A stretch of DNA of 64,000 nucleotides. Source: Branchiostoma lanceolatum. Taxonomy: Eukaryota. Shown in pieces: positions 43,243-64,000 of this stretch. The notes under the pieces were generated by a model. The model was not told where the DNA came from and made no database searches. It was given only the letters and a program-made list of their open reading frames with translations. The stretch covers positions 9,172,596-9,236,595 of the forward strand of contig NC_089740.1 in the NCBI RefSeq assembly GCF_035083965.1, in the 5' to 3' direction. The position numbers were made by a program, and so were the translations under genes. Position 1 is the first letter of the stretch. The number at the start of each line of letters is the position of its first letter.

Positions 43243-43598
43243 TCAAGCGATGAGGGAGTATGCAATCATCATGGGTATCGCGAGAAACAGCGAGAAGAGG
43301 GACGAGATTTGAGAAGCGCCCCCTGTATATCCGTTCACCTCTGCCTCTGTGGTGTTGTGGCAGAAGTACCACATGTTCTCCACGTACTTTGTGAACTCTG
43401 AACCCTCGGGGTAGCCGTTGTTCCTGACCAGCTGTTTGAAGAAAACGGATGAAGCCTTCGGGTAGCGGGTGCGGGTGGGGTCGTTGAAGTCGACGTAGTG
43501 GAGACCGAATCGCTCGGAGTAGCCGGACAGCCACTCGAAGTTGTCCAGCAGGGACCAGGCGGTGTAGGCCTTCACCTTGACGTTGTCCACGTTGCTAG
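43243..43598 (-). CDS. GH1 copy 1 exon 10 (terminal; GPI-anchor-like tail; includes stop)
   Basis: Acceptor cactaccag|CT. Translates [118 protein letters not shown] then stop at 43243-43245. Lies in ORF 43243-43590. Confidence 0.85.
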
Positions 43599-44093
43599 CT
43601 GGTAGTGTAATGCAAAAACAACAATAGTTCCTTTGAAACTTTTTGATAATACTACATGCGGCAGACGGTACATTAGAAATAAAGTTTGGGAGTTAAAATA
43701 GTATATTATATCAACACAGCCAAAGCAAAACGTGCGAAATGTCTAAAAGAATCAAATTTTGCATGCATGTAGTTTAATGTATTCCAAAAAAATTATCTAA
43801 ATCTCTATTAAGATGCTTTCTGATGGTCAAAAGGAAACTCCCGCATAGATAAGATTTCAAAATATTTCAAATGATTTCATAGATGCCACTTATTGAAGAT
43901 GTAACACAATGCATTTGTACTTGTATCGAAGTTGCAGTATAAAGTATGTACATGCATCCTAATAGACCAATGATATGACACATGGTATTACAGGGCTTTC
44001 GTAAAGCATTTGTTCTATTCACAGTTGCTTTCTCTCTAAACCTAGCTCCTCAGATGATTACACTTAATTGAAAAGACGACTACGAACATGTAC

Positions 44094-44179
44094 CTTTCAT
44101 GACTTCATTGGTGTACATCATGTAGTAGCAGATCCTCTCCATATCCATCATGATGGCTGGGTCCTGGTCATGGTCAGAC
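44094..44179 (-). CDS. GH1 copy 1 exon 9
   Basis: Acceptor cactacag|G and donor GAAAG|gtacat. Translates RSDHDQDPAIMMDMERICYYMMYTNEVMK. Confidence 0.75.
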
Positions 44180-44649
44180 CTGTAGTGTGTCGTTGAAAAC
44201 ATACATTAAAACTCAATACGTATATCATCAAAGTCTGATTATAATGCAGTGTAAGGTATCAGGTTAAGGAATTGGCTCATGATTGGGGCTGCTTATACAT
44301 GTATGTATATATGTGATAGATTTTAGGAGGCGAAGAGTATCATTTCCATCCATATGGTTCTGGATCAACTTCTTGTCTACGCCGAATAACAGTTGCTCAA
44401 ACGTCTTGTCAATTTGGACGAACAATGCAAATTTGATTGCCTACCCTCCTTGAAGAGCTTGTACGGAAAGGCGTGCCCAAAGTAGAAACTGTCATAACAG
44501 GATACGTGGCATACTTAATTCAAAATTGTACCAAATACCAACATACAAATTCTGGCATGATACATCCACCACGGAGGTAAAAAGCTAAAGATTGAATTTC
44601 ACAATATGAAGGCTCCAAGTAGATCCTTGTTTTACGAAGAGCTGCTCAC

Positions 44650-44818
44650 CTTCCGTTTTCAGTGACGTAGATTTCCGGATCTCCGTACTCTTCCTTGATA
44701 AAGCCGAGGAGATTCCGGATTCCCCACGGAACGACGTACAGCCAGCTGGAGGCAGCACGCGGCCAGTCAGGCGCATGCCCAGTCCCCACATCTTTGTCTG
44801 TGTCGTAGTTGGGGTTTT
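44650..44818 (-). CDS. GH1 copy 1 exon 8 (nucleophile Glu in YVTENG)
   Basis: Acceptor tttgcacag|AA and donor GGAAG|gtgagc. Translates ENPNYDTDKDVGTGHAPDWPRAASSWLYVVPWGIRNLLGFIKEEYGDPEIYVTENG. Lies in ORF 44646-44840. Confidence 0.85.
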
Positions 44819-45108
44819 CTGTGCAAATGAAAAATGACAATCAAGAATCATGTTCACATTGAATATTGAAGGTTTTGTCCACACATAGCCTAGCCTAGGT
44901 GTTATCCTATTTCAGAGGAGCGAACTCTAACTGAAATAGACTGGCTTCTCACAACCCAGCGCCAACCTTAAATGGGAGTAGTGTAAAAGGTACTAAATGA
45001 ATTACTGGCTGGCTTAATGGCTCTCAACTGACAGGCCGACATGGTCTACGGGCTGAATGGATGAGCAGGCGAGCAGATGTATACCTCGATGACGCGTTTT
45101 TGACCTAC

Positions 45109-45268
45109 CTATTGGAGAACAGCAGGCGTCGGTCACCTCCACTGTGGTGTAGTGGTTCAGTCCGAAGAAGTCTCCGGTGCCGCTGATGGAGAGCTTCTGT
45201 TCCGGGGTGAACTCCGGGAGACGGGACGTGGTCCTCCCCTCCTCCTGAGCTTTCCTCGCCATCGTTGT
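45109..45268 (-). CDS. GH1 copy 1 exon 7
   Basis: Acceptor gcacgacatag|ACA and donor ATAG|gtaggt. Translates [53 protein letters not shown]. Lies in ORF 45014-45262. Confidence 0.8.
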
Positions 45269-45489
45269 CTATGTCGTGCAAAAAACACATTTGCCATAAA
45301 TACATTGTATTGAATGCTATTTGCAAGTAACATGAAAAAGACGAACAAATAACGAAGAACAGAAGCATCAACCACGAGAAAATAATGAGGCCGCTGCTTT
45401 AGACCGTTTTGGCAAAGACTAAAGCAGCCAACGTTTAAGATTTTAATATACAGGTACAAATTATTACAATTGATGAGAACATGTCGTAC

Positions 45490-45630
45490 CTTCATGACTT
45501 CCGGATAGTCGCCGTTCTTGTAGATCGGATGAGCGAACCAGCCCAGGAAGAACTGGACGTATCGGAGCGCTGCGTCAGCATCAGCCGGAGTCTTGGGTGT
45601 TCCCCAGTCACAGTTCAGGGTGATACCAAC
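45490..45630 (-). CDS. GH1 copy 1 exon 6
   Basis: Acceptor ctcttaag|GTT and donor ATGAAG|gtacga. Translates [47 protein letters not shown] (compare [28 protein letters not shown]). Lies within ORF 45157-46002. Confidence 0.85.
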
Positions 45631-45699
45631 CTTAAGAGGAAAACAGCACATACGTTCAGATAGTACAAGCGCATACAGAAAGCCACGAAGCAGTGTTCT

Positions 45700-45910
45700 G
45701 TGGGACATCTCTCTCTCTCTATCTCTCCCTCTCCCTCTCTCTCTCTCGCTCCCTCTCTCTCCCTCTCTTTCTCTCTTTTCTCTCTCCTCTCTCTTGCTTC
45801 TCTCTCTCTCGCTTCTCTCTCTCTCGCTTCTCTCTCTCTCGCTTCTCTCTCTCTCGCTTCTCTCTCGCTTCTCTCTCGCTTCTCTCTCTTTTCTCCCTCT
45901 CTTTCTCACT
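45700..45910. repeat. (CT)n / (CGCTTCTCTCTCTCT)n compound microsatellite in GH1 copy 1 intron 6
   Basis: ctctctctctatctctccctctccc...cgcttctctctctctcgcttctctctctct... It generates the spurious [10 protein letters not shown] and LSLSLS ORFs on both strands. Confidence 0.85.
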
Positions 45911-46075
45911 GTCTTCTCATCTCTCTTTTGATATATTAGATAGATAAACAGAGAGACTGGCATAGATAGCTTTGAATTTGGAGAGTAATAGACAAGGTAC
46001 AATATCTCCTTCTATGTTCACCAACAACCCCTATTCTATCAAAGGTGTGATATGTAGACAGCGATGGTATTTTAC

Positions 46076-46203
46076 CTGTCCACCCTGTGCGGCTCTGAAC
46101 TCGTCGTCGTATATGTGGTAGGCCTTGGCGTGAGACAGGATGATGTTATGGGCTGCTATGTACTGTCCTTCGGCCATGTCGTTATGCTGGGGGGCAAAGT
46201 TAC
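46076..46203 (-). CDS. GH1 copy 1 exon 5
   Basis: Acceptor gttctag|GT and donor GGACAG|gtaaaa. Translates GNFAPQHNDMAEGQYIAAHNIILSHAKAYHIYDDEFRAAQGGQ. Lies in ORF 46031-46225. Confidence 0.85.
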
Positions 46204-46324
46204 CTAGAACGACACAGCAAGACATTCAATAAAACACGTCAATCTACAAAGGTCTTTTCTAGAGTTCCTTAGTAGAAAATTATCTTTTTTTCATAAATAA
46301 AATATTGACACGACAGGATATCAT

Positions 46325-46409
46325 GACATTGCAGGTAGATACAAGTAGATAGATGGATAGATAGATAGATAGATAGATAGATAGACAGACAGATAGATAG
46401 ATAGATAGG

Positions 46410-46485
<76 letters not shown>

Positions 46486-46525
46486 CGGAGAGATAGACGG
46501 AGAGATAGACGGAGAAATAGACGGA
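46325..46525. repeat. (GATA)n microsatellite, about 45 units, GH1 copy 1 intron 4 (absent from copy 2)
   Basis: agatagatagatagatagacagacagatagatag... It generates the spurious [11 protein letters not shown] ORFs. Confidence 0.85.
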
Positions 46526-46582
46526 GAAATAATGGATACAATGCGATGTTATACGCATCTGAAAATAGATGAAAGTACCCAC

Positions 46583-46748
46583 CAATGCCATATCCGAGCC
46601 AGGCCGTGATCCAGGGTTCGTTGAATGTGATCCAGTACTTGACGCGATCCCCGAAGTTCTGGTAACAGAAGCGAGCGTAGTCTCCGAATAGATCGTGGAT
46701 CACGGTAGTGTTGGTGGTGTGGTTGTTGAGGAAGCCTCCGTACCTGTC
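46583..46748 (-). CDS. GH1 copy 1 exon 4 (acid/base catalytic Glu in TFNEP)
   Basis: Acceptor ttccag|GAC and donor ATTG|gtgggt. Translates [55 protein letters not shown]. Lies in ORF 46269-46703. Confidence 0.85.
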
Positions 46749-47388
46749 CTGGAATGGTGAAAATATAGATAATCAAATACAAGATGGTTCAATGACAGTG
46801 CGTGCCTTTAGAGAGTTTCTTTCTTGCAAGTAAAGCATCCGGGGTAATTCTGCAAATAAAAGTATGAAAAACGAAAATAGTGCAAATGCCTAAAATCGAT
46901 CGCTGTTGATCTTCAAAACCCTCCTCAGTCGGGCTGAATGCGCTCGGCAAACCCTCCCGCATCAGCCCTGCTCCTCTCCTGTCTGTTTCTGGCTCCTGGT
47001 GATGTTGCTCACACTTGTTCTAATTGATTAGTGAGCTAGCGTTTAAGGCACAGACAGCCGTTATTTTGTTCTGAACTAAAAGTAGCGATGTCAGACGTAA
47101 CCTGATTGGCTGATAGATTCTCAACGATATTTAAGCTTTCCGGTTTTCCAAGATAAGCTTCTGGCAATCCTCTGATGATGTTTGGTGGTGACGTCACCAG
47201 GAGCCAGAAACAGGCCAGAAAAGAGCATGGCTGATGTGGGAGGGTTTGCCGAGCGCATTCGGTGCTACTGAGGAGGGTAATCTTCAATCAAGTAAAGTTA
47301 GAACTTGATCTCTTTTAGATATTCTACTATCCCCTCAATTATTACTTACTATGGAATATTAATATGGATGGGTTTAAGATCAAAGTAC

Positions 47389-47516
47389 CTGTAGAACCTG
47401 CGGGAGATCCCAGTGGAACAGTGTCACCATCGGTTGGATGTCGTTGACTATCAACTCGTCGATGAGGGCGTTGTAGTAGCGGACGCCATCTTGGTTCACT
47501 CCATCTTGTTGCTCAC
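47389..47516 (-). CDS. GH1 copy 1 exon 3
   Basis: Acceptor ctcacag|GT and donor CAG|gtactt. Translates [43 protein letters not shown]. Lies in ORF 47380-47700. Confidence 0.85.
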
Positions 47517-48026
47517 CTGTGAGATGAAGTAAGTAAATGAGAAATTCTTGCCATTTGTGATAGGTCTTTGATTGAGACAACGTGACACATTGTGTATTTT
47601 GAGATAATATGTGACGGAAACAATGTATAAAACATAAAAAGTCAGGTCTACATAGCTGAGAAAGATACGGGAAAGCCATGTTGGTGACCATTGACCTCAC
47701 TCTAAAGCGTATGCGATAAAGATTGTAATCTAACTATTTTGGCTTAATAACTTCCACTCGTTAGGTTGGTGGAGAGCTATCAGAATCAAGTGTCCACCCC
47801 AACTTAATTAATCAATACTGCACAATTTTACCCTCACTCAGACTAGATATGTTTCCGTATGTTTGCGATTATGATGTTGTTGATGAAGACTATAGCTGTT
47901 GTGAGTCATTGAATGGCCGTTCATAAGTTGCTGTAGAGATTTATTACCAGCCTATTCGAATCATTAACTTTGTCCAAACTTTAGTGCCTATTTTTCGCCA
48001 CGCAGCATGCTATAGGGGAATCTTAC

Positions 48027-48140
48027 CTGTTGGGAATAGCCTGGGCCATGAGATCGAGAAGCGGTAATACTTCAGCCCCATCTGCTTCATCAGTGCTACA
48101 TCCTCCGGGTACTTGTGGTAGCTGTCACAGGCAACATCCC
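48027..48140 (-). CDS. GH1 copy 1 exon 2
   Basis: Acceptor tcttctccag|GG and donor ACAG|gtaaga. Translates [38 protein letters not shown]. Confidence 0.8.
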
Positions 48141-50785
48141 CTGGAGAAGACACACAATACCATTCATATTAGAAAGAGTGTCTACACTAAGCTGGTAAGA
48201 TATGGCTGGCCAACCTGGGATATTAATAAACACTGTGATGATGAGAATAGGAAACCTGAATTGTTGCTCTACATATGATTGTTAGGGGTTCTTCACAGCA
48301 CGGCGCTGCTGACATGGTGAGCTTTATGAGGTACGTTAAAAGGTTTGTATGTTTCATCTTCTAAGATTGGTCCAAGAGTTCAATTTTAGAAAATAAACTT
48401 ATTAAGTGTTAGTACATGTACAATGTAGGATTTTTGCTTTCGAAATCAGTAAAACTTTTCAAAAGTAAAGCAAGATCAAAGCTTAGCAATAAATGCGTAA
48501 CGTCACTCTCGTTGATACATGATTCAGAACCAAATGCGTACTTTTAAAAAGATGATAAATGACCTCAACACCGGTACCCTACACTTACACCCACTGCGTA
48601 CAGTATATACAGCGACTGAGATGATTCTTATATGTTTAGTTTCTTAGTTAAATCATCCAAACATTTTCATGCTAGCTCACGACTTGTACATTACACATTG
48701 CACGTCCAGCTTATCTTATCACGGATTAAAAATTGCGTAAAATCAATCAAGATGGCGTCATATCAAGGGATTTTGGACTCTAGTTTAAACTCTATTCAGT
48801 TCAAATTTGTTACCCAGTCAGTAGAAGGCTTGTCTTCCATGACAGGCAACATCGCCTAGTGTAAGACAACAACAACTATTATATACGTAACAGGCAACAT
48901 TCTTGTACGCTTAGTTTCTGAGTTTCATTTCCCTCAAATTCTTCATGATAGTTCACTCAATGCGCATAAGTCTAAGTTATCTGATCAGGGATAAATTATT
49001 GCGTAAAACCAACCAAGATGGCGTCATCCCGAAGGATTTTGAACTTTGGATACTAATTCAAACTCAAGTCAGGTAAAAATTCGTTGCCCGGCCAGTAGAG
49101 TGCTTGTCTTCTGGGAGGGGGGCACGAAGACGTGTAAACAATGGCATCGCAGTAACAACACGTTCCTAATCAGGTCTGTCAAACGGCGTCGTTTATCTCA
49201 AAGGAACTCGTGTTTAACTCCATCATTAATGCGTTTATTAACAAGGGGGCGTGTCCTTGGCACGTTAGCAGCTAAAGGTTGTATAATAGGGTCATTGTGC
49301 AAGTGTACACATGATAGCGGGGACGCGGACCTTGACACCGTATGACACGTTCCCAGGAAACTTTATACAGAAGTGTAGCTGTGTAATTGACACATATTCA
49401 TGTATTTCACTGCGAAAGGTGTGAGTAATTGGTCTTTATCTGTTTAAGCCAAACATCCTCAAAGCCTATTTACCCGACTCTCGATAAGTGGGTTGTTTTT
49501 CACTAATGTAAACACAAGCCGCTCCGCGCAGGTTTAAAATCCTTTATGCAACCCTACGTGGTTTAATCGTACCGCGATTCATCGATCTCAGCTGTTTATT
49601 GTGTCATATCTCTTGTACAAAATGCACGTGGCAATGCACATGTTCAAATTCGGGTCTGTCGACCATTGGAATCATTGATTTTGGTGATTACGTAAGTCAT
49701 TCAGCATCATTCAGCATGATGTAACATTGCTCTCTCACTAGACCATGAAAAAGCTTTGTCATTTCAACTCAGCACTTTCCTTTGTTCTCAAAATTATCGT
49801 GGACGTGTCACATTGTTCCCTGGTTGAAGTCTTTACTGGACATACTGTAAATGCAGAAATGTGCCGGGATTACATTTGGCGGGGGGGGGGGCGGTAGAAA
49901 TCTTCGGTGGTTTTGAGTTCATGCTTGAAAGAATAGTATCGCTACAGTAACACAATGGAACGGCTTTTCGCAGTGGGTTTAAGTTCGCGATAAAGAGTTC
50001 ACCGCAAAAAACAGCGAAAATAAAACCATGGCGAACATTTCTGCTTTTACAGTATATGCTTCTCCATTTCTCTCAGCACGTTTCCAGTGGTATAGTAGGT
50101 GTGTTGACACGTATGCAACGTTCCATCTACAACAAGGCCGGCAATGAACCCGTCAAACTGTCAAGATTGGAGCTTTTTCACAGCTAGCCTTTCAAGAATA
50201 AACTGCTGCTGAAAAGAACTACAGCCAATGCTAACTGTTGTACGATATAACAAAGGGACAGGGCGAGGGGGAGGGGGTGAGAAAAGATTGACAGAGGTGG
50301 AAAGAGAAAACGGGTTCATAGGTGCTCATTGTTCTTAAACAGCTTTTTAAAACATATGACTTAAGCTAGAGGTGTCTTGCTTGATCTCCTACTTTTACCG
50401 TCTCTGAATCTAGTTTGGTTAAACATCCTACAAACAGGTAAACTTTCCATAGCTTTCTCAAGGCCGTATGTTGCCAATCCACTCTCTTTTACATGGTATT
50501 GGAAGGCGGAGCCCAGCCTGGAATCCAGACCTATTATGATAGCTCCCGAGTCTCGGGAGCTCTAATAGGTCTGGATTCCAGGCTAGGCGGAGCCCATCCG
50601 TCTCGTTCCATCACCTTCTACCTCCTCAACCGAAGTCAGGTACCCATTGTTACCCCTAGGTGGAGTCAGGTACCCATTTACACCTGAGGTTTACATGTAA
50701 GTCATGTTAAGTGCCTTTCTCATTGACAATTGTGCATTGACAACATACGATAACTTTCAAAACAGTGGACGAAGAAGACTTTTAC

Positions 50786-51023
50786 CTGTATCTTGGTTGT
50801 TAACTCTGCCCTGGTGTGCGAGTGTGTCCCAGATGGACGGACCTTTGTCACTGACGTTCCAGGCGCCTTCTATCTGGTACGCTGCCGTTGCCGAACTCCA
50901 GATGAAGTCCTGCGGAAATGTTCCCTTCAGTAGAGCATCTCTCTCCTTGTCGTATGCTCCATTAACGGGAGCAAAGGCGAGGGTAACCCCGAGAAGGAAG
51001 TTAAAGAACTTTCTTGGTGCCAT
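50786..51023 (-). CDS. GH1 (lactase-like beta-glycosidase) copy 1 exon 1
   Basis: ATG at 51023 (plus-strand cat 51021-51023). Translates [22 protein letters not shown]|[57 protein letters not shown], a signal peptide plus the GH1 N-terminal motif. Donor ACAG|gtaaaa. Lies in ORF 50757-51128. Confidence 0.8.
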
Positions 51024-52581
51024 GATAGAACCGTCGGCTGCCAGGGATAAGGACAAATAAGCTCTAGTCTGATACCCAACGGCCCAAATAGGCAAACGCT
51101 GGGGCCACTTTGTGGTTTTCATCAACACTGATAATTCATAGCATTTTATTTATGAAAAATCGTTTTTCAGAATCACTTACTTCCTTTGCATATGGTCACG
51201 GTCCATATGTCCAATGAAAGCTCAACTAACTTCCCAAAATTCAGAAATTTCATTTGTCCAAAAAAACTTTCATAGACGATGGATACATTTTCTGACATAC
51301 GTGATATCTCCATCCACAGCCTCGAATGCCACTTGTCCAATAGTGTCCTCAACTAGTTTTAAATTTATTATCTGACAGTACAAAGGTTATCGGGATTTGA
51401 AGGTTTGTTGGCTCACTGTTCAAACCGCGACGTTTGGTGACATCACGCCGTCCTCCCACTTTGTAAACACAGTGTCACTGCACAAATATAAAGGCTTACT
51501 TATTATTTGATGTGGTTAAAGCAATCTACTTTTGATAGCTTTGTATTCAAACCGACGTGCTGGCATTTGAAGAGTTGCAAAGAGGGGGGTATGGCCAATT
51601 GCCAACAGAGTTCGTCATTGCTAGGTGATTGACGTCAGCAGCCTGTGTGCATGTTCAACGTCTATCCAACTAGGACTACTTTGGACACTCATGGGGACAG
51701 CAATGTCTTTGAACTGTATTTGAACAACAGTTCAAACACACACCTTGGCACAATTCTTTACCACAGTCATCATAGATCATGATCGCATGTCGTCAAACAG
51801 CCGGAAAAAAGGTAACAGACCGCGCATTGGTCTTTGTGGAAGAGCTGATCTTTCTCCCCTATAGGTTGAACATTTGGTTCTACCCGCGCTTTGTTTGAAG
51901 AAGAATGGCGCTTTGAACAACCCGGACGACATAGGGTAGTGCTACGTTATCATTCAGAAAAGTGTACATGGTAAAATGTTGCAAGACAAGTGGTTGATAA
52001 GATCATGAAAGTTCTTTGCTGGTTAATTGGGCAACAAAAGCAATTATATAAGCCTCTGCAGTGTTAGATATCCATGTCCACCGCATAAGTACAAAATAGA
52101 ATTGCAATGAAAACATTTCAAGGCGCTTGAATTAAGTACAGCTACTAACACCATCTACGTCGATAATCCACCTGCTCAATCGATGACGCAACAGACCACT
52201 CCGAATACCGCGAGAAACATCTATATAGAATAGAGTACAACACTGAATAATGGAATTGTCAGACCAATGATTTTTCTATATTCATTTATTTGAAAAAAAA
52301 GTAATAGCTGCACAAATGCCGTCATTAGTGTTTAAAAAACACCATCAAGACTCGTCCTAGCATAAGGCGTAGGTAAGTTGATCTACATGGCTCAATATAA
52401 CAAATAGAACAATCAATCTCCGATCAGTCTTAATGCGGATGTTTCTCTCTCTGTCAGTAATTCGTATTGGTTATGTACTAAAATCTTAATACCCATGAAG
52501 TGATCTACCAAAACGTAAAGCACTATTCACAAATGCAGGACTATGAACGAGTTGTAAGTACCTAATGGTTTAACTACATGT

Positions 52582-52937
52582 TCAAGCGATTAGGGGGTAT
52601 GCAATCATCATGGGTATCGCGAGAAACAGCGAGAACAGGGACGAGATTTGAGAAGCGCCCCCTGTATACCCGTTCACCTCTGCCTCTGTGGTGTTGTGGC
52701 AGAAGTACCACATGTTCTCCACGTACTTGGTGAACTCTGAACCCTCGGGGTAGCCGTTGTTCCTGACCAGCTGTTTGAAGAAGACGGAAGAAGCCTTCGG
52801 GTAGCGGGTGCGGGTGGGGTCGTTGAAGTTGACGTAGTGGAGACCGAATCGCTCGGAGTAGCCGGACAGCCACTCGAAGTTGTCCAGCAGGGACCAGGCA
52901 GTGTAGGCCTTCACTTTGACGCTGTCCAGGTTACTAG
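52582..52937 (-). CDS. GH1 copy 2 exon 10 (terminal; GPI-anchor-like tail; includes stop)
   Basis: Translates [118 protein letters not shown] then stop. Lies in ORF 52582-52962. Confidence 0.85.
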
Positions 52938-53499
52938 CTGGTAGTGGAATGAAAAACAACAATCATGATGTTAGGCATATTGTATAGGAAGTTGAATAGT
53001 GCAGATCTGGTAGTCAAGGGAAGTTCCTGCACCATTTTTAGAATTTCGTCGGCAGTGCATTGTTTCGAATTCGAAGATTTGGTAAAAAGTGTCCAACTGA
53101 CCAAAAAAAGGACCTATTGTGACATGGATTTTCGTAGCTTGAGGAGGTCTATCAAAAACGTACTCAGTTGGTGTGCCTGTTTCCAAATCTACCAGAAAGG
53201 TCCCAAAAAGATGGCAAGAAGTTGAGTTTGCTCGAGTCCAGAGTTGTCCCACACGTGTGACAAGTATACTCAATATAATACAGTTTGCACAGGTTAAGGA
53301 TAAGGGCGTCTCAGTGTTTGTTATCAATGGATTAATAAGACCAGATAAAGCAAAAGAATTAACAAAAAAAACCTTTCACAGGGATATGAGGTCTCTTAAT
53401 ATTACGCTATCTGTTGTAACTCATTGGTTTCTTTTCAAATATTCCCTGTTAGAGAAACAGAATGATGAAAAAGACATCTGCTTAACTACGAACATGTAC

Positions 53500-53585
53500 C
53501 TTTCATGACCTCATTGGTGTACATCATGTAGTAGCAGATCCTCTCCATGTCCATCATGATGGCTGGGTCCTGGTCATGGTCAGAC
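53500..53585 (-). CDS. GH1 copy 2 exon 9
   Basis: Translates RSDHDQDPAIMMDMERICYYMMYTNEVMK. Lies in ORF 53486-53668. Acceptor tgctag|G and donor GAAAG|gtacat. Confidence 0.8.
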
Positions 53586-54148: not shown

Positions 54149-54578
54149 CTGTGTAAAGGAAAAATAAGAATCAAGAATCATGTCCACATTGAATATTGAA
54201 GGTCTTATCCACACATAGCCGATCATGGCCTCCCTAAATTCTCCATACCATAGTTGGAAATTAGTCGTGAGAAAGGTCAGCTTTGGTTGCGAGCTGGCCG
54301 GCGAGGTTGCTTTAAATCTTTGAAAGTCGTCTGTGCCAGCCGCTTATAAATATTAACAAATCCAAGTCTATGAGAGGAGCGAACTCGAACTAGAATAGAC
54401 TGGCTACTCGCAACCCAGCGCCAGACTTAGATGGAAGTAGTGAAAAGTTGTGAGAACGTCCTGAATGTGTCACTCGCCGGCTTTATGGCTCTCAACTGAC
54501 AGGCCGACATGGCCGACAGGCTGAAAGGACATGAGCAGGCGAGCAGATGTATATCTCGGTGACACGTTTTTGACCTAC

Positions 54579-54738
54579 CTATTGGAGTACAGCAGGTGTC
54601 GGTCACCTCCACTGTGGTGTAGTGGTTCAGTCCGAAGAAGTCTCCGGTGCCGCTGATGTAGGCCTTCTGTTCCGGGGTGAACTCCGGGAGACGGGACGTG
54701 GTCCTCCCCTCCTCCTGAGCTTTCCTCGTCATCGTTGT
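54579..54738 (-). CDS. GH1 copy 2 exon 7
   Basis: Translates [53 protein letters not shown]. Lies in ORF 54427-54732. Acceptor ttcctacatag and donor ATAG|gtaggt. Confidence 0.8.
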
Positions 54739-55074
54739 CTATGTAGGAAAAATACGCGCTTTTACTGTACCCTGTCATTTCTTATGTTTACCCTTAAGGA
54801 AGGGAAACGTATTATGGTTACATGGTGACAGTAGACGCCCTGTTGTGTTTGATTTCATCATGTAGCACGTGCATGCTTGTCACCATATATTTGTAATCAA
54901 ATGAATGGATTTGATAAGAATAAACTGTAGCGTAGTCTGTTTTGCCGGTGTCTCCTGTGACAGATTCTCCAGCGAACCAACATCGGAGGCATCAACAGCG
55001 GCAGACCGTCTTCAAAGACGAAAGTAGCCTACGATTAAGATCTTACAAGAAAAATTGATGAGAACGTGTCGTAC

Positions 55075-55215
55075 CTTCATCACTTCCGGATAGTCGCCGT
55101 TCTTGAAGATCGGGTGGGCGAACCAGCCCATGGAGAACTGGATATAACGGATCGCTGCGTCAGCATCGCCCGGAGTCTTGGGCGTACCCCAGTCACAGTT
55201 GAGGGTGATGCCAAC
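55075..55215 (-). CDS. GH1 copy 2 exon 6
   Basis: Acceptor ctctatag|GTT and donor GATGAAG|gtacga. Orthologous to copy 1 exon 6 ([47 protein letters not shown]-like). 141 nt. Confidence 0.75.
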
Positions 55216-55289
55216 CTATAGAGTAAAACAGAACATTAGATCAAATAGTTCGATGCACTAACAGAAAGCCACGAAGCATTGTTTTGTGG

Positions 55290-55316
55290 GCCGTCTCTCT
55301 CTCTCTCTCTCTCTCT

Positions 55317-55364
<48 letters not shown>

Positions 55365-55410
55365 ATTTCTCTCTCTTTTTGCCCTCTCTTTCTCGCTATC
55401 TTTTCTCTCT
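55290..55410. repeat. (CT)n microsatellite in GH1 copy 2 intron 6
   Basis: ctctctctctctctctctctagctctctctctctctctct... Confidence 0.85.
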
Positions 55411-55587
55411 CTCTCCCTCACTCCTTTGAGGAATGATAGATATACACGAGAGACTGGTATTAATAGTCTTGAATTTGAGGAGTCACAGACAAGGTACAGT
55501 AGTTCTGCCTCGTGTATTGCAAACGGCGACAATAACCATCCTATATTTTTACGTTGCCATGTTATGTAGACAGTGAGGATATTTCAC

Positions 55588-55715
55588 CTGTCCATTCTGT
55601 GCGGCTCTGAACTCGTCGTCATAGATATGGTAGGCCTTGGCGTGGGACAGGATGATGTTGTGGGCTGCTTTGTACTGTCCTTCGGCCGGCTCGTTATGCT
55701 GGGGGGCAAAGTTAC
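55588..55715 (-). CDS. GH1 copy 2 exon 5
   Basis: Translates GNFAPQHNEPAEGQYKAAHNIILSHAKAYHIYDDEFRAAQNGQ. Lies in ORF 55549-55755. Acceptor cttgccag and donor GGACAG|gtgaaa. Confidence 0.85.
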
Positions 55716-56207
55716 CTGGCAAGAAACAGAAAGACTTGCTATAAAACATGTTCAACTACGGAAGTCCTCCCCTATTATAAAATTGATATTAAGCCAATGT
55801 GAGGAACATTGATGCGAAAAGATATCATGACATCAAAAGCCGATAGAAAATTAGATAATACTGTAGGGAGATTGCTAATAAAAGTATAAGTGCCTTTTTA
55901 ATATATACAGTTCTTCACATGTAAGGGTAATGCATGACATCTACAAAAAGAAAGGCTATTCGATCTTCATTGAAACCGCATTGGCAAAGCTCTACCGGTC
56001 TAATGCATGTAAACGATGCCCAGCTATTGCCAACATTTTCAGATCATCATCATCATCGGTCCTCCCCTTGACCAAGGAGGTTTTATATAAAACTTTACCT
56101 TAACGAGGTCCAGCAAGCGAAGTTTACCTTCCAGAACTGCTTGTCGTTCATTGCAGAGTTTTTGTAGTAACACAGAAGATAACCCACCCTAAGATGAAAG
56201 TACCCAC

Positions 56208-56373
56208 CAACGCCATATCCGAGCCAGGACGTGATCCAGGGTTCGTTGAATGTGATCCAGTACTTGACGCGATCCCCAAAGTTCTGGTAACAGAAGCGAG
56301 CGTAGTCTCCGAACAGATCGTGGATCACGGTAGTGTTGGTGGTGTGGTTGTTGAGGAAGCCTCCGTACCTGTC
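56208..56373 (-). CDS. GH1 copy 2 exon 4 (TFNEP)
   Basis: Translates [55 protein letters not shown]. Lies in ORF 56095-56328. Acceptor ctttacag and donor GTTG|gtgggt. Confidence 0.85.
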
Positions 56374-57209
56374 CTGTAAAGGTGAAAATATGAATAATCA
56401 AATAAAAGTCGGTTCAATGACAGTACGTGTCTTTAGGGAGTTTCTTTCCTGTAAATGAAGCATCGGTGTGATACTGCCAATAAAAGTATTTTAAATGTGC
56501 TTTCTAAGATCAAGGAGGTTTTCCTTGGCAAGATGCAACAGTGTTCGAATTAACACGGTGGTTTCGCACGGGTGCCAGGTTCACCGTCATCTGTATGGTG
56601 TATGTGCTGATTGTCTGCAATGATTGTTTGAGCCTTCTTAAAGTATAATAGTAGTGAACTCATGATTACAAACGTATGCCTTCTGCCAAGCTTTTCGAGA
56701 CATCTTCAGATATGACTGGATGCAAAACCAAAAAGTTAGTATGCCTAACATTGATCGCTGTTGATCTTCAAAACTTCGTCGGTCGCGCTGAATGCGCTCA
56801 GCAAACCCTCCATCAGCTCTGTTCTTGTCGGCCTTTTTGCTCCTGGCGACATTACTTATAGTTGCTCATGAATGATTAATGAGCTAGCCGTATTTTGTTC
56901 TGAACCAAAAGTAGCGATGTAAGACGTAACCTGATTGGCTGATAGCATCCCAGCGACCTTTGCGTTTTTCAAGATAAGCTTCTGCTAATCCTCTGATTGG
57001 CTGAACGCTGTTTGGCTTCTGATGTCGCCAGCTGCAGGAGCCAGAAAAAATTGGCCGGAGAAGAGCAGGGCTGATGCGGAAGGGTTTGCCGAGCGCATTC
57101 AGCCCAGCTGGGGAGGGTGATCTTCAAGAATATAAACTTAGAACTTGATTTCTTTTAGATAGTCTACTATCCCCTCAATTTATTGTGGATGGGTTCAAGA
57201 TCAAAGTAC

Positions 57210-57337
57210 CTGTAGAATCTGCGGAAGGTCCCAGTGGAACAGTGTGACCATCGGTTGGATGTCATTGGCTATCAACTCGTTGATAAGGGCGTTGTAGTAG
57301 CGGACGCCATCTTGGTTCACGCCATCTTGTTGCTCAC
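57210..57337 (-). CDS. GH1 copy 2 exon 3
   Basis: Translates [43 protein letters not shown]. Lies in ORF 57201-57434. Acceptor ctcacag and donor CAG|gtactt. Confidence 0.85.
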
Positions 57338-57754
57338 CTGTGAGATGAAGTAGTAAGTAATAAAAAAACGTGATACAGTAGGTAATTTTTAAAGATATTA
57401 TGTGACAAGGTATATATAAGGTACACATAGACAAAGATACGAGGAAGCCACGTTGGTGGCATGTGACCTCACTCTAAAGCGATGGATATATCTAATCTAA
57501 CTAAATCGAGCTAGCTGTCAGAAGCTAGTGTCCACCCCACCTCTATCAATCAATACTGCGCCAGTTTACCCTCACTCATACCGGATAAGATATGGTATGC
57601 TTGCGGCTGCAATGTTGTTGATGAAAACTAAGCTGCTGTGAGTCGTTGAATGACTATCGAAATGGTGTAAACTACTGTAGAGATAACCAGCATATTCTAG
57701 TCATTGACTATATGCCTAAACTCCAGTGCCTTTTGATCGCCATGTAGCATGCTA

Positions 57755-57904
<150 letters not shown>

Positions 57905-58959
57905 TTAGATTGCAGAGATCATAAAGTACTGCCGCCCAAGCTTAAGCTGGCAAGATATGGCTGTTAAAACAAATTATGAGAATACAAGGGTTGAAATGTT
58001 GCCCTATATATGGCTGTAAGGGTCCCCCCCCCCCCCAGATATCACACGCCGCAATACTCATGGTGATATCATGAGGTATACGCTAAAAGGTCTGTGTGTT
58101 TTCGTCTTCTAAGACTGGACCTTGAATTTGATTTTAGAAAATAAACGTGTTAAGTTTTAGAACACGTACAATGTAAGCTTACATTGATATAGAACTAAAT
58201 GCGTACTTTTATAAGAATGATAAATGAAGTCAATACCCTGCACTGATCACACCCACTGCGTACAGTGTATATAGCGACTATTATTATATGCTTAGTTTCC
58301 TACTTTAATCATAACAAAATTCATGATAGCTCAGGACTTTTACACTGCACGCCACCCACAAGTCCAGCTTATCTTACGTAAGATTACGTAAAATCAATCA
58401 AGATGACGTCATGCCGAGGGTTTTTGAACTTTGGATTCTAGTTTAAACTCTGGTCAGGTAAAAAGTCATTACCCGGTCAGTAAAGTGCTTGTCTTTTGGG
58501 AGGGGGGGGGGGGGGGCACGAAGTCGTGTTAACAATGGCATCGCAGTAACAACACGTTCCTAATCAGGTCTGTCGATCAAACGGCGTCGTTTATCTCAAA
58601 AGGACTCGTGTTTAATTCCATCATTAATGCGTTTATTAACAAGGGGGCGTGTCCTTGGCACGTTAGCAGCTAAAGGTTGTATAATAGGGTCATTGTGCAA
58701 GTGTACACATGATAGCGGGGACGCGGACCTTGACACCGTATGACACGTTTTCAAGAAACTTTAACGAATGCACAGAAGTGTAGTAATTGGCACGTATTCA
58801 TGTATTTCACTGCAAAAGGTGTAAGTAATTAGTTTTTATCTGTTAAAGCCAAACATTCTCAAAGCCTATTTACCCGACTCTGGATAAGTGGGTTGTTTTT
58901 CACTAATGTAAGCAATAACCGCTCCGCGCAGGTTTAAAATCCGCTTAAAAGTGGCTCAA

Positions 58960-59102
58960 TCGTACCGCGATACTAGCCTGGGTGCCAGCCTTTTTAGCTT
59001 CCGTACGCTACACAAGCTCCGCTCCTCGAGCTTGGGTAGCGCAGTGGAGCTAGGGTAGCGGACGGAAGCTAAAAAGGCTGGCACTCAGGCTACCGCGATA
59101 CC
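58960..59102. repeat. Near-perfect palindrome/foldback insertion (about 65 bp arms) in GH1 copy 2 intron 1, absent at the homologous site of copy 1
   Basis: cgcgatactagcctgggtgccagcctttttagcttccgtacgcta...tagcggacggaagctaaaaaggctggcactcaggctaccgcgata. The copy 1 homologous region around 49540-49600 lacks it. Confidence 0.6.
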
Positions 59103-60271
59103 ACTTTGCTGCTTTTGCATATTGTGCAATATTTCCTTTACAAAATGCACGTGGCAATGCACATTCAGAAATTCGGGTCATCCTTCAAAAAAGGACCTTT
59201 AGAATCATTGATTTTGGTGATTACGTAAGCCATGGCTATGAGCATGATGTAACATTGCTCTCTCACTAGACCATGAAAAAGCTTTGTCATTTCAACTCAG
59301 CACTTTCCTTTGTTCTCAAAATCATCATGAACGTACCACACTGTTCCCTCATTGAAGTATATACGGGGCATACTACAAATGAAGAAATGTTAACCGGGAT
59401 TACATTTCGCGGTTGGGAGAAAATCTTCAGTGGTTTTGGGTTCGCGTTTGAAACAACTGTGGCGCTACAGTAACACAATGGAATGGCTTTTCGTGGTGGA
59501 TTTAAGTTCGCGGTAAAGAGTTCATCGCGAAAACGTGAAACCACAGCGAACATTTCTCCATTTACAGTATATGCTTCTCCATTTCTGTCAGTCCGTTCCC
59601 AGTGGTACAGTAGGTGTGTCGGCACGAAGGTAACGTTATATCTACAATGAGGCTGACAATAAAACAATAAAACTGCCAAGACTGTCGCCTTTTCACAGCT
59701 AGCCTTTCAAGATCAGGGTTAAACGGTTGATAGAAGGGCAACCATCCTGAAACAGATCTCTAACCGTGCTAGCCAGAGAGGGAAATGGAGGAAATTTGCA
59801 GTCACCTGTGCAAAAGCAGCAAACCGATGACAACGATGATGAAAATGACTTCAGCCAAAATATTAATGCTAACTGGTTTATAGAATGGTGCTCATTGTTC
59901 TTTAAAAAGCTTAAAACATAAGAAATAAGTCTGTGGTGTCTTGTTATATCTCCTACTTTCACCGTCTCTGAATCAAGTCTAGTCAAACATCCTGACCAGA
60001 CTATGTTCAGAGGTATAGGTCCCATGACCTTCTTTAAAAGGTTGGAGGCTGTGGATCCACACTCTTTGACGTGGTATCGGAAGGGGAGCCCATCCCTACG
60101 TCTTCCACCGCCTTAACTCACCCAACCGAAGTCAGGTACTTATTTTACCCCTGGACGGAGTCAGGTAACCATTTACACATGAGGCTGAAGTCATGTTAAG
60201 TGCCTTTCTCATTGACAATTGTGCAACAACATACAGTAACTTTCAAAACGGAGGACGAAGAAGACTTTTAC

Positions 60272-60509
60272 CTGTATCTTGGTTGTAAACTCTGCCCTGA
60301 TGTGCGAGTGTGTCCCAGACGGACGGACCTTTGTCACTGACGTTCCAGGCGCCTTCTATCTGGTACGCAGCCGTTGCCGAACTCCAGATGAAATCTTGCG
60401 GAAATGTTCCCTTCAGTAGAGCATCTCTCTCCTTGTCGTACGCCCCATTAATGGGAGTTAAGGCGAGGGTGACCCCTAGAAGTAAGCTAAAGACCTTTCT
60501 TGGCTCCAT
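60272..60509 (-). CDS. GH1 copy 2 exon 1
   Basis: ATG at 60509 (plus-strand cat 60507-60509). Translates [79 protein letters not shown]. Donor ACAG|gtaaaa. Lies in ORF 60243-60563. Confidence 0.8.
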
Positions 60510-61639
60510 GATAGAACCGTCGGCTGCCAGGGACAAGGACAAATTGACCTCTCTAATGCCCAACGGCCCTTAAACGCAGAAGCGGGGACTATTTTCTGGT
60601 TTTCATCAACACTGATAATTCATTATGATGGATTCAAAGGAATAACGCTCGTTTATCAAAATAACTTAATGTTCTTGCATTTTGCCAAATATTGTCGAGT
60701 AAGAACAGGCAGCTGACTCAAAAGTTTCAGAAAGTTTAGTCGACAAAAAGAATTCTCCTAGACGATTGCTACATTTTCGGACATACATGATATCCTCATC
60801 CACACCCTCAAATATCGCTTACCCAATAGTGTCCTTAACTTATTCTAAATTCATTACCTGACAGTACAAAGGTTATCGGGATTTGAAGGTTTGTTGGCTC
60901 ATTGTTCAAACCGCGACGTTTGGTGACACCGCGCCGTCATCTCACCACACCACTGCACAAATGTAAAGGCTTACTTATTGTTTGATGACGTAAAAGCAAT
61001 CTACCTCTGATAGCTTTGTATTCAAACCGACTCGCTGCTGGCATTTGATGGGTTGCATAGAGGGGGTTATGACCAATCGCCAACAGAGTTCGTCATTGTT
61101 AGGTGATTGACGTCAGCGTTAGTGTGAATGTTCGAGCTAGTACTACTGTAGCCACTCATGTGGACAATTTGTCTTTGAACTGTATTTGAAGCAAAAATAC
61201 TCAAGTGAGCGACAATAGGTCACCCAGGCACACCATAGTTATCATAAATCATACTCGCACGCCGCCAAACAGCCGGAGAAAAGGTTGTACAGACCTGTTA
61301 GACCATGCATTGCTCTTTGTAGAGGAGCTGATATTTCTCTGAACATTTGGCTCTGTGCGCGCTTTTTTAAAGGAAAATGGCACTTTGAACAACTCGGACG
61401 ACAATGAGTAGTGCTACGTTATTATCCCGAAAGGCGCAGAACAAGACGGTAAAATGTTACATGTAGTTATAAGATCATGAATGTTCCATTGGTTAATTGA
61501 GCAACAAGAGCAGCCTTTGCTGTGTCAGATACATCTATGTCAACGGCACAAGTATAAGATAAAATTCCAATGAAAACATTTCAAGGGCGATTGAAATAAG
61601 TACAGCTAATAGCACCATCTACGTCGATCATCCACCTGC

Positions 61640-61992
61640 TCAATCGATAAAGCAACAGACCACTCCCAATATCGCGAGAAACAGCGAGAACGGGGACGAG
61701 ATTTGAGAAGCGCCCCCTGTATATCCGTTCACCTCTGCCTCTGTGGTGTTGTGGCAGAAGTACCACATGTTCTCCACGTACTTGGTGAACTCTGAACCCT
61801 CGGGGTAGCCGTTGTTCCTGACCAGCTGTTTGTAGAAGACGGAGGAAGCCTTCGGGTAGCGGGTGCGGTCGGGGTCGTTGAAGTCGACATAGTAAAGGCC
61901 GAAACGCACAGTGTAGCCGGGTAGCCACTCATACCCGTCCATGAGAGACCAGGCGGTGAAGGCCTTCACCTTAACATTGTCCAGGTTGTAAG
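61640..61992 (-). CDS. GH1 copy 3 exon 10 (terminal; hydrophobic tail; includes stop)
   Basis: Acceptor tctgccag|CT. Translates [117 protein letters not shown] then stop. Lies in ORF 61640-61969. Confidence 0.75.
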
Positions 61993-62349
61993 CTGGCAGA
62001 AAAAAAAGATTTATTAGTTAATTACATTATCAAATTAGCTAGCCATCATATTCAAATGAGGTTTTAGGTAATGAAGGCATTAGTTCAGAATAGTTACCAT
62101 CATGGAGATAATTTGATATCTAGCAATGATCGGAGAGTCACGGCAAAAGTGCGAAAGATTTTCAAGATATGGTACAGATTCCACTCATTGAGCAAGGAAC
62201 ATGACATGTGTGTGTCAATTTCCTATAATGTAATATGACTATATCAATGTAATCATAATAAGTTATAAGTGCATGTTTAGTATCAGTGCAAACATTTTCC
62301 ATGATATAAGTGCTAAAGGTGTTGGAAAACGTTCAGTCAGAGCAGATAC

Positions 62350-62435
62350 CTTTCATAACCTCGTTGGTGTGCGTCATGTAGGAACAGATCCGGTCCATGT
62401 CCATAAGGATTGCTGGGTCCCGGTCGTGGTCAGGC
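62350..62435 (-). CDS. GH1 copy 3 exon 9
   Basis: Acceptor ctacaccag|G and donor GAAAG|gtatct. Translates RPDHDRDPAILMDMDRICSYMTHTNEVMK. Confidence 0.7.
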
Positions 62436-62930
62436 CTGGTGTAGAGTGAGGAAATGAGGAATGGATGGTTAAATAGTGCAGTGTGAAGAAATAAAGGGAT
62501 GCATCGTCAAAGAAGAAGCCATCAGGTATGGTCTTAAATGTATATGTTTGCTGTTGTGTACAATGCTAGAATTTTGACATTGTTGATAATCATATAATGC
62601 AGTGGACTGTTTCATCATTCGAAAGCTGTTAATAGACGACTACATTAATTCTATTTCATGGTGACCAGGGAGAAATAGAGAATTAAACAATAGAAGGAAA
62701 GCACATCAGTATTGGCCTGGATGCCAGACTGTTTCCAGGGCCAGCATACCCCCAAGGAAATTTTACCACAGCTCCCCAAGTTTGACCCTGCTCTAAGTCA
62801 GGAGGCTGTCTCAAAATTTCCTCGGGGGCATTTTAGCTCTGGAGCCGAGGAGCTGGCCTATGTAGGCTCTAGGAACAGTCTGCCGTCCAGGTTACATCAA
62901 TATAAGAGGATGGCGATAGAAACCACTCAC

Positions 62931-63099
62931 CTTCCGTTTTCCGTTATGTAGACATCCGGATCTCCGTACTCGTCCCTGATGAAACCCAGGAGTTTCCGGA
63001 TTCCCCAGGGAACAGTGTACAGCCAGGTGAAAGGCGTTTGTGGCCAATCAGCCGCATGTCCCTTCTCAACATCCATGTCACTGAAGTAGTTGGGATTTT
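62931..63099 (-). CDS. GH1 copy 3 exon 8 (ITENG nucleophile motif)
   Basis: Acceptor cttccttag|AA and donor GGAAG|gtgagt. Translates ENPNYFSDMDVEKGHAADWPQTPFTWLYTVPWGIRKLLGFIRDEYGDPDVYITENG. Confidence 0.7.
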
Positions 63100-63846
63100 C
63101 TAAGGAAGTATATTAAGGTTGTTAATTGTAGTAAAAAGTATTAGAAGACCTATGAACATTATAGAATGTTACAAACATAGATAAAAGCATTTAAGACAAA
63201 CTTCACCCTATCTGGTACACAGAGCGATATTTTCTATATACTGTTGTCATGCCCGACTACTATATCCATGTACATAGGTCAATTTCTCCCTAAATCATTC
63301 GAAAAGCGAGACAGAATTACCCATACATGACTACATATTGTAACAAATAAACTGGTTTCGAAAATATTTTGTACTTAGAATTGTAGGATCGATTAGCCTT
63401 GTAGACCAGATTGTTGATTTCATGCCATACATTGTACCATGTACGATTGTTGAGCAATAAAGTTCACTTCACTTCACTTTAAAGATCGTTCGGTCTTCTT
63501 CATGAACATTACGGTGTATGGTTAAATGTTGCAAGAACTACTGACGAACTACAAGTTATCCTGTGCATCTGTATCTGTTTAGCCGGTATAACAGGCAACA
63601 TCTTCGAAGCCACGAGGCGCACAGAGGCAGCTGGATACATTACACCAAGGAGGTTATATAAAACCTAACCTTTGCACATCTTACTGCAAGCATTGTTCAA
63701 AGCTAGTCAGTGAGTTCAAAGCCTTCATGTACAGGTCGCAACATAAAATGTCATGTATGAGTTGACCGACAACTAATTAGTGCATCAGAGGACTATAATT
63801 CCTAACGTAATGTTAACCTTCGAGCAATAGATGACCTTTGACCAAC

Positions 63847-64000
63847 CTGTCACAATATGGCCTGAGTCAGCCACCTCCACAGTGGTGTAGTAGTTCAGGG
63901 CGAAGAAGTCGGAGGTTCGGTTGATGTAGGCCTTCTGCTCCGGAGTAAACTCTGGCAGACGGGACGAGTTTCTTCCCTCTTCTCGCCCTTTCCTCGTCAT
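63847..64000 (-). CDS. GH1 copy 3 exon 7 (5' end truncated by window end)
   Basis: Translates (TT)[51 protein letters not shown]. Donor ACAG|gttggt. Lies in ORF 63785-64000. Exons 1-6 of this copy lie beyond 64000. Confidence 0.7.

Follow-up and report, generated by a model that had tools for sequence, protein, structure and literature searches.

The locus described here raises the question of whether a run of family 1 glycoside hydrolase (GH1) sequences in the European amphioxus, Branchiostoma lanceolatum, belongs to one gene for a large multi-domain protein or to several genes of one domain each, and by what events such a run came about. It lies in a stretch of 64,000 nucleotides (nt) of contig NC_089740.1 (positions 9,172,596 to 9,236,595), referred to as the window. 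RefSeq offers one answer, a 'lactase/phlorizin hydrolase-like' protein of 1625 amino acids (aa), XP_066270991.1, within which all three GH1 units of the locus are found as exact substrings. We consider a different answer highly probable and the best explanation of the data as a whole: three separate tandem genes, each encoding a single-domain GH1 protein, which stem from an old and a younger duplication and have undergone gene conversion since. For allelic comparison we used the corresponding locus of the BraLan3 assembly (OV696704.1:6630425-6675971, hereafter L001), which is independent of the assembly of the window.

When the window was searched by tblastn with amphioxus GH1 proteins, matches were confined to the minus strand at 43243-64000 and fell into three collinear sets of 10, 10 and 4 exons. 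Together with splice-refined models this bears out the head-to-tail minus-strand array, and the minimum of two rounds of duplication, proposed in a first-pass annotation made from the sequence alone. Copy 1 is a complete gene at 43243-51023, with its ATG at 51023 and a Pfam-supported domain; its exons 1-5 occupy 51023-50786, 48140-48027, 47516-47389, 46748-46583 and 46203-46076, and exons 6-10 occupy 45630-45490, 45268-45109, 44818-44650, 44179-44094 and 43598-43243. Copy 2 is likewise complete (52582-60509), with exons 1-5 at 60509-60272, 57882-57769, 57337-57210, 56373-56208 and 55715-55588, and exons 6-10 at 55215-55075, 54738-54579, 54148-53980, 53585-53500 and 52937-52582. Each has an intact open reading frame (ORF) of 561 codons plus stop in 10 coding exons, and all nine introns of each are GT-AG. 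The exon lengths of the two are the same (238/114/128/166/128/141/160/169/86/356 nt) and hence so are the intron phases, as had been proposed.

Copy 3 is represented in the window by its 3' part only (61640-64000): exon 7 (64000-63847), which is cut by the window edge, exon 8 (63099-62931), exon 9 (62435-62350) and exon 10 (61992-61640, including the stop). These follow the length and phase pattern of copies 1 and 2 and encode 253 of about 564 residues. The earlier description of three complete or near-complete genes therefore fits copies 1 and 2, and copy 3 only in part as far as the window goes. Neither in-frame stops nor frameshifts, both of which the first-pass annotation had named as outcomes to look for alongside a lack of GH1 matches, were present in the splice-refined models of copies 1 and 2 or of the in-window part of copy 3, and the copy motifs that it quoted are all present in these models. 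A full 10-exon copy 3 occurs in the allelic BraLan3 locus (L001 10025-17386), so that about 5.3 kb more of this gene, with exons 1-6, lies outside the window. The gene order in BraLan3 is the same (copy 3, copy 2, copy 1), and in L001 neither the 10 kb upstream of copy 3 nor the 10 kb downstream of copy 1 contained a further GH1 match. The array is confined to three members; the expectation that it would continue past the window was met by nothing but the remainder of copy 3.

By every sequence and fold criterion tested, the encoded proteins are members of GH1. The Pfam domain Glyco_hydro_1 (PF00232) is matched with E=3.1e-157 by residues 33-503, which span profile positions 2-452 of 453. The best solved relative is the second domain of the Aplysia kurodai beta-glucosidase (8in1, 513 bits), and the next structure matches are the Klothos, a termite beta-glucosidase and the human cytosolic beta-glucosidase. 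An AlphaFold model was made of a 94-97% identical proxy protein, P0002 (predicted local distance difference test score, pLDDT, 87.7; predicted template modelling score, pTM, 0.86). Foldseek matched this model to 8in1 with E=4.6e-59, and the root-mean-square deviation (rmsd) of its superposition on the termite enzyme and human GBA3 as well as on 8in1 is 1.4-1.5 A. In copy 1 the acid/base residue Glu204 (WITFNEP) is encoded by the GAA codon at 46617-46619 and the nucleophile Glu412 (YVTENG) by the GAA codon at 44658-44660; the corresponding codons of copy 2 are at 56242-56244 and 53988-53990, all on the minus strand. The glycone-binding residues are present in all three copies, namely Gln (YQIEG), His (HWDLP), Tyr (N(H/Y)Y) and Trp/Glu/Trp (AWSL..(F/Y)EW). 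These residues make it most likely that copies 1 and 2 encode active retaining beta-glycosidases, which would operate by the standard double displacement, with Glu204 as acid/base and Glu412 as nucleophile.

The domain is flanked in both complete copies by an N-terminal signal peptide and a C-terminal hydrophobic tail. The putative signal peptides, recognised by inspection as hydrophobic N-termini, are encoded at 50958-51023 in copy 1 and 60444-60509 in copy 2 (minus strand), with cleavage predicted before AYD...; in the P0002 model this N-terminal helix is of low confidence. The tails comprise 18 residues each (copy 1, 43246-43299, mean Kyte-Doolittle hydropathy 2.17; copy 2, 52585-52638; minus strand). 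The C-terminus as a whole runs from small residues through a short polar spacer into a hydrophobic stretch of 18 residues (mean hydropathy 2.1-2.2), after which no residue follows; in copy 1 GGASQISS directly precedes the tail. In the P0002 model a confidently modelled extra helix past the barrel (residues 521-535) is followed by a disordered linker, rich in Gly/Ala/Ser, and then by a terminal hydrophobic helix (548-570). The tail resembles a signal for attachment of glycosylphosphatidylinositol (GPI), and the same layout is seen in echinoderm, crinoid and hemichordate homologues. Copies 1 and 2 would be exported via the endoplasmic reticulum (ER) and then stay attached to the cell membrane on its outer side, with a GPI anchor as the probable link. 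Their substrates may be dietary beta-glucosides or beta-galactosides in the gut or hepatic caecum, a suggestion as to substrate and tissue that draws on analogy with LPH and with mollusc and insect gut enzymes.

Amphioxus GH1 paralogues on other chromosomes (P0082, P0089, P0095 and P0096) end in KEEL/KDEL and have no hydrophobic tail. They share a post-barrel helix motif, E.T..V..MW..C, and carry the NCBI name 'cytosolic beta-glucosidase-like'; their C-termini suggest that they are ER-retained members of the family.

The case for three genes comes from the ends of the units. Every unit is complete with an ATG, a signal peptide, a stop codon and a hydrophobic tail of its own, and in copies 1 and 2 an AATAAA follows at a homologous place, 445 nt past the stop of copy 1 (42792-42797) and 291 nt past that of copy 2 (52285-52290; both minus strand). 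The tails of copies 1 and 2 differ by one aa, with a non-synonymous divergence (Ka) of 0 over the last 50 codons, and the upstream unit of B. floridae likewise retains stalk and tail. Three genes are favoured because the very parts that a fused gene would discard have stayed conserved as coding sequence.

Copy 3 is distinguished from its neighbours by its active site. Its acid/base motif reads WITFNDP, with Asp in place of Glu, in XP_066270991.1, in the ENA proteins and in the allelic BraLan3 DNA, where the codon is GAT (L001 13445-13447, in exon 4 and thus beyond the window end at 64000). The nucleophile is kept (YITENG, codon 62939-62941, minus strand), such that the earlier statement that all copies keep both catalytic glutamates stands for copies 1 and 2 and fails at one of the two sites in copy 3. 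NDP also occurs in the copy 3-type units of B. floridae, of a B. floridae x B. japonicum hybrid and of B. belcheri. If copy 3-type units are termed A and copy 1/2-type units B, copy 3 is 82.6% identical in aa sequence to the A-type unit and 77-79% identical to copies 1 and 2, copies 1 and 2 are about 89% identical to the B-type unit of the B. floridae hybrid and 93.4% identical to each other, and A- and B-type units overall share 74-79%. As the identity of copy 3 with the A-type unit exceeds that of A with B, the A/B split is older than the split between B. lanceolatum and B. floridae. For exons 8-10 the identity of copy 3 with the other copies was about 80% (63-69% in exon 7 and 88% in exon 10) and not the 70-75% first estimated.

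These data indicate that copy 3 represents an older paralogue lineage, and its sequence is compatible with either a slower or altered enzyme or a binding protein. That it is no longer a glycosidase, and that the array would be a mixed one in which copy 3 is a pseudo-enzyme or a binding protein of the Klotho/LCTL type, is an appreciable possibility, although we do not favour it. The change from Glu to Asp is shared by B. lanceolatum, B. floridae, the hybrid and B. belcheri, the A lineage has evolved faster than B (82.6% versus 89% between species), and the Klotho family is described as GH1-like proteins lacking catalytic glutamates (PMC5715364). Set against this, the nucleophile and all glycone-binding residues are retained, and the ratio of non-synonymous to synonymous divergence (Ka/Ks) of copy 3 versus copies 1 and 2 is about 0.3, which is compatible with a constrained enzyme. 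Asp is, moreover, still a carboxylate, and Glu-to-Asp mutants of GH1 enzymes usually keep some activity. Human LCTL would resemble copy 3 in having Asp at the acid/base position.

A single gene, in which the three units are exons for a three-domain LPH-like protein of 1625 aa as in XP_066270991.1 and the internal tails and signal peptides are spliced out or read through, appears quite unlikely. The RefSeq model does contain all three units exactly: of copy 3, the 250 in-window residues to ...GVVCC (at position 312), the last three (FID) excepted; of copy 2, the sequence as far as ...YPEGSE; and of copy 1, everything from DALLKG through the protein end. Two-domain GH1 proteins are also common in molluscs, Ciona and fish. 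However, the only route to the RefSeq peptide across the border between copies 3 and 2 is an 'intron' from 61651 to 60570 with TT..AA ends, which entails translation of the 5' untranslated region of copy 2 and a protein with both a tail and a signal peptide in its interior. The joint between copies 2 and 1 (52736 to 50940, ...YPEGSE/DALLKG...) is of a better kind, being GT-AG, in frame and at domain borders, and it removes exactly the anchor and the signal peptide, although both of its sites are weak (donor GA/gttcac, purine-rich acceptor). In ENA isoforms, exons from more than one copy occur together, and their order is always the genomic one; yet these chimaeras switch copies inside stretches that are identical between paralogues and lack a GT donor, as transcript-assembly errors would, and stand-alone models of 561 aa are also present in ENA. 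Finally, copy 2 has its own AATAAA, and the internal starts, signal peptides, stops and tails are conserved as coding sequence across paralogues, alleles and species.

Several points nevertheless weigh against three separate, GPI-anchored genes as the full account. The copy 2/copy 1 joint is one of these. Neither AATAAA nor ATTAAA occurs between the stop of copy 3 and the ATG of copy 2 in either assembly, so that copy 3 has no canonical poly(A) signal ahead of copy 2. Transcripts or models joining exons of different copies are found in both public annotations, and read-through and fusion products may exist beside the separate ones. The tail could be a C-terminal transmembrane helix without cytosolic residues. 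In addition, B. floridae has no third copy, judging from its two-unit gene models alone and not from its genome.

An extra intron in exon 1 of copy 3, at DKER/DALLKG, was considered because it would explain the chimaeric ENA isoforms, and was rejected: in L001 the exon runs on uninterrupted, and the proposed site lacks a GT.

Two further readings, which may both be true, are left alongside three genes with conventional products, and taken jointly we think them unlikely. In one, copy 3 would represent a conserved amphioxus lineage of catalytically altered GH1 protein beside active paralogues, tied to these by gene conversion at the anchor end; it would then be the pre-vertebrate equivalent of a 'glycosidase turned binding protein' of the LCTL/Klotho type, and might be an orthologue of such proteins. 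In the other, read-through of copy 3 and use of the in-frame GT-AG joint between copies 2 and 1 would yield real multi-domain transcripts, and the locus would be a living intermediate in the origin of multi-domain LPH/Klotho architectures from tandem genes.

With three separate genes preferred, the 1625-aa RefSeq protein is most likely a fusion of three genes by the annotation pipeline, and ENA isoforms that mix exons of different copies are suspect in the same way. The best database matches of the window proteins are B. lanceolatum 'LCT' proteins, and ENA annotates the BraLan3 locus with 21 of these (CAH1251842-62), a set made up of stand-alone 561-aa models and many isoforms of mixed exons. 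The copy 2 protein is 98.8% identical to ENA protein P0124; the models of copies 1 and 2 had no exact entry as separate proteins in the protein collection searched. A search of the literature on these amphioxus genes returned no paper, only general statements on human GH1 proteins. The trio is thus already catalogued in ENA and RefSeq and is an ordinary lineage-specific expansion; tandem expansions of digestive glycosidases are common in individual lineages.

Fused or intermixed models of tandem GH1 genes occur in three Branchiostoma annotations: XP_066270991.1 (P0138, 1625 aa), XP_078578131.1 (P0121, 1272 aa) and P0001 (970 aa). P0121 contains insertions that resemble retained introns. B. belcheri P0047 looks like a mosaic of copy 3-type (NDP) exons 4-6 and copy 1/2-type exons 7-8, and would be either a chimaeric gene model or a product of gene conversion in B. 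belcheri.

How copies 1 and 2 arose could be read from the ends of the duplicated segments, the limits of which were set by self-blastn and boundary alignments. Unit 1 (42723-52217, 9495 bp, minus strand) takes in copy 1 together with the intergenic region upstream of it and about 520 bp of its 3' flank; unit 2 (52218-61681, 9464 bp, minus strand) has its upstream end inside exon 10 of copy 3. The offset between copies 1 and 2 is 9339-9486 bp. At the joint, 52218/52217, the sequence reads ...TTCTATATAGATG/TTTCTCGCGG..., with 2 bp (TG) of microhomology. From the joint, downstream of copy 2, runs a relic of the last codons and stop of copy 3 (52177-52221, minus strand), reading MFLAVFGVVCCVID followed by the stop. 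It lies directly downstream of the copy 2 poly(A) signal, as alignment of 61780-61480 with 52316-52016 and of both 3' flanks showed, and the same relic is present in BraLan3 at L001 27030. Sharing of no more than TG at the joint points to a non-homologous, microhomology-mediated event rather than to unequal crossing-over. Non-allelic homologous recombination, that is, unequal crossing-over in exon 10 between copy 3 and the ancestral B gene, was tried as the origin of copy 2 and rejected, because the tail of copy 2 is of B type, as is its 3' flank, which contains the poly(A) signal, and only then does the copy 3 relic follow.

The age of this duplication was one point on which the first-pass annotation needed revision. 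It had put copies 1 and 2 at about 95% exon identity, close to the 94.3% nt identity of the coding sequences (93.4% aa; single exons 89-98%), and the intron and promoter segments that it singled out do align, at 48998-49578 with 58383-58971 (87%) and at 50589-52219 with 60085-61683 (79%). Its conclusion, that the duplication is very recent and that youth alone explains the 94% exon identity, is nonetheless very unlikely. The equal exon lengths, the high exon identity and the alignable introns and flanks would suit it; but the introns are only 47-85% identical with many indels, synonymous divergence (Ks) is 0.168 (Ka/Ks 0.19), and the identity is patchy, as conversion would make it. Across some 8300 aligned positions, the units as wholes are about 80% identical. 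When the BraLan3 alleles were included to make the alignment four-way, this held in both haplotypes, versus 95-96% between alleles, and the divergence of the units (~20%) is roughly five times that of the alleles (4-5%). Both independent assemblies, moreover, contain the duplication and the relic at its joint. Allelic coalescence is several times younger than the duplication that gave copies 1 and 2, which is itself either younger than the species split or homogenised. That the two units are instead haplotypes of one gene placed in tandem by the assembly can be set aside as barely credible, common as this error is and highly heterozygous as amphioxus are, since the units diverge by 20% versus 4-5% between alleles, each has its own allele in the other assembly, and the joint with its copy 3 relic is in both.

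The high exon identity of copies 1 and 2 is due partly to selection and gene conversion, and conversion is best seen in exon 10. Here a tract of 199 nt that encodes the stalk and anchor signal is shared by copy 1 (43276-43474), copy 2 (52615-52813) and copy 3 (61670-61868; all minus strand). Between copies 2 and 3 there are 30 differences in the first 124 nt of the exon and four in the next 199 nt (Fisher p=3e-10), and past the tract the homology ends abruptly at the divergent tails. Ks is ~0.04 inside the tract versus 0.4-1.1 elsewhere; across the three paralogues and two assemblies, the number of sites within it that differ is 1-9 for paralogues and 3-4 for alleles. Each of the three B. lanceolatum copies has NGYTGGAS, and both B. 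floridae units have NGLIGGAS. The stalk/anchor region of exon 10 is under interlocus gene conversion, or concerted evolution. A haplotype-specific mosaic was also found in copy 1 over exon 3, intron 3 and exon 4 (46596-48067, minus strand), where the alleles are 82-89% identical or unalignable and the copy 1 of the window is nearer to copy 2. The protein patches of this mosaic are at residues 130, 134, 171, 188 and 192, with a copy 3-like patch at residues 224 and 231.

The history that we propose begins with an old duplication, before the B. lanceolatum/B. floridae split, that gave rise to the A (copy 3) and B lineages. A later tandem duplication of a 9.5-kb segment, which started 43 nt ahead of the copy 3 stop and extended ~520 bp beyond the ancestral B gene, yielded copies 2 and 1, and short conversion tracts have afterwards kept parts of the paralogues alike.

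The introns hold several repeats and one conserved block. In intron 1 a block of ~475 bp (49020-49495 in copy 1, 58407-58895 in copy 2) is 88-94% identical between the paralogues versus a background of ~80%, and 98% identical between alleles; neither intron 1 of copy 3 nor the remainder of the window contains it, and Rfam gave no match to it. It could be a conserved regulatory element or a further conversion patch. A scan of the whole window against Rfam gave no match. An ~85-bp element resembling a miniature inverted-repeat transposable element occurs twice, in opposite orientations, in intron 3 of copy 1 (46918-47005 versus 47278-47191) and once in intron 3 of copy 2 (57118-57035), at 86-87% identity. 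A (TC)n microsatellite occupies the homologous spot in intron 5 of copies 1 and 2 (45708-45926 and 55294-55423), and (TAGA)41 is found in intron 4 of copy 1 only (46346-46509); these repeats account for the long spurious low-complexity ORFs in the ORF list.

Other genes share the window. A Cys-rich exon (...CQNDVECMAGRGEGSCCA...ICKPPAGEGDDCH) lies at 37395-40840 (e.g. ORF 39842-40132, plus strand; L001 39192-42675), where the gene that comes next downstream of copy 1 in BraLan3 encodes a 121-aa protein with a Prokineticin domain according to Pfam. Between this prokineticin-like gene and copy 1 are two tandem arrays (37447-37742 and 41917-42271) with units of 148 bp and 197 bp, ~2 copies each at 85% identity. 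Further away are two exons of a deoxyhypusine synthase gene (15150-15485 and 19079-19390, plus strand; Pfam DS, E=2e-8 and 4e-16) and an exon of a ZBTB-type transcription factor (31187-32686, minus strand) that encodes a BTB/POZ end, a long Ser-rich linker and four C2H2 zinc fingers. An immunoglobulin C2-set exon (5408-5743, plus strand) and an exon for a transmembrane segment followed by a basic stretch (7477-7800, plus strand) probably belong to one gene for a membrane protein of the immunoglobulin superfamily. Beyond the window, the gene upstream of copy 3 in BraLan3 (L001 1744-7574) has a 138-aa product without a Pfam match and is not GH1.

Mollusc beta-glucosidases, which are secreted gut enzymes of algae-feeding marine animals, include the best match of solved structure. 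The second domain of Aplysia kurodai akuBGL (PDB 8IN1) scores 513 bits with 49% identity and an rmsd of 1.5 A, that of the Corbicula japonica beta-glucosidase (P0032) is 53% identical, and the second domains of the bivalve (Corbicula) and Ciona beta-glucosidases together give 52-53%; both catalytic Glu residues are present in the matching domain of the mollusc enzymes. These differ in having two GH1 domains per chain and no such hydrophobic tail, whereas the amphioxus genes encode one domain each with a tail. Echinoderm and hemichordate proteins named 'cytosolic beta-glucosidase-like' or 'lactase-like', and other amphioxus GH1 proteins, are 52-57% identical and are organised in the same way, from a signal peptide through GH1 domain and small-residue linker to a terminal hydrophobic stretch; the name notwithstanding, these proteins are not cytosolic. 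Human GBA3 (KLrP) has 45% identity, an rmsd of 1.4 A and both catalytic Glu residues, but neither signal peptide nor anchor.

The LPH-like label given in the first-pass annotation is also that of the public annotations, which name these genes LCT or LPH-like, and the primate LPH string quoted there exists, in P0116. The GH1 domains of vertebrate LPH/LCT are 46-49% identical to the amphioxus ones, share GWFAHPI(F/Y)KNGDY and are extracellular and membrane-bound, as the amphioxus proteins probably are. In architecture the label fits less well, as LPH carries four GH1 repeats in one polypeptide with a type I transmembrane helix and a cytosolic tail, in contrast to three separate single-domain genes whose tails end at the C-terminus. 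Fish LCT P0093, for example, ends in ...LLIVSRKRSKKRKNDP, with 18 residues past the hydrophobic stretch, including the basic RKRSKKRK, where the amphioxus proteins have none. alpha- and beta-Klotho are also GH1-derived, extracellular and membrane-bound; they differ in being FGF co-receptors of two domains, each lacking a catalytic Glu, and show ~38% identity. LCTL (KLPH/gamma-Klotho) has, like the amphioxus proteins, a signal peptide and one GH1 domain and, as is probable for them, a C-terminal membrane anchor. It differs in that the anchor is a transmembrane helix with a short cytosolic tail and that copies 1 and 2 keep both Glu residues, and the active site of LCTL, a GH1-like protein, is described as atypical (PMC5715364, citing Ito 2002). 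With one GH1 domain per gene, the amphioxus architecture resembles LCTL and the single-domain enzymes of invertebrates more than LPH with its four domains or Klotho with its two. For the origins of LPH, LCTL and Klotho, the locus provides a tandem GH1 duplication resolved to the nucleotide, with ongoing conversion between its copies, and, from the nearest invertebrate outgroup lineage, a conserved paralogue in which a catalytic residue is altered.

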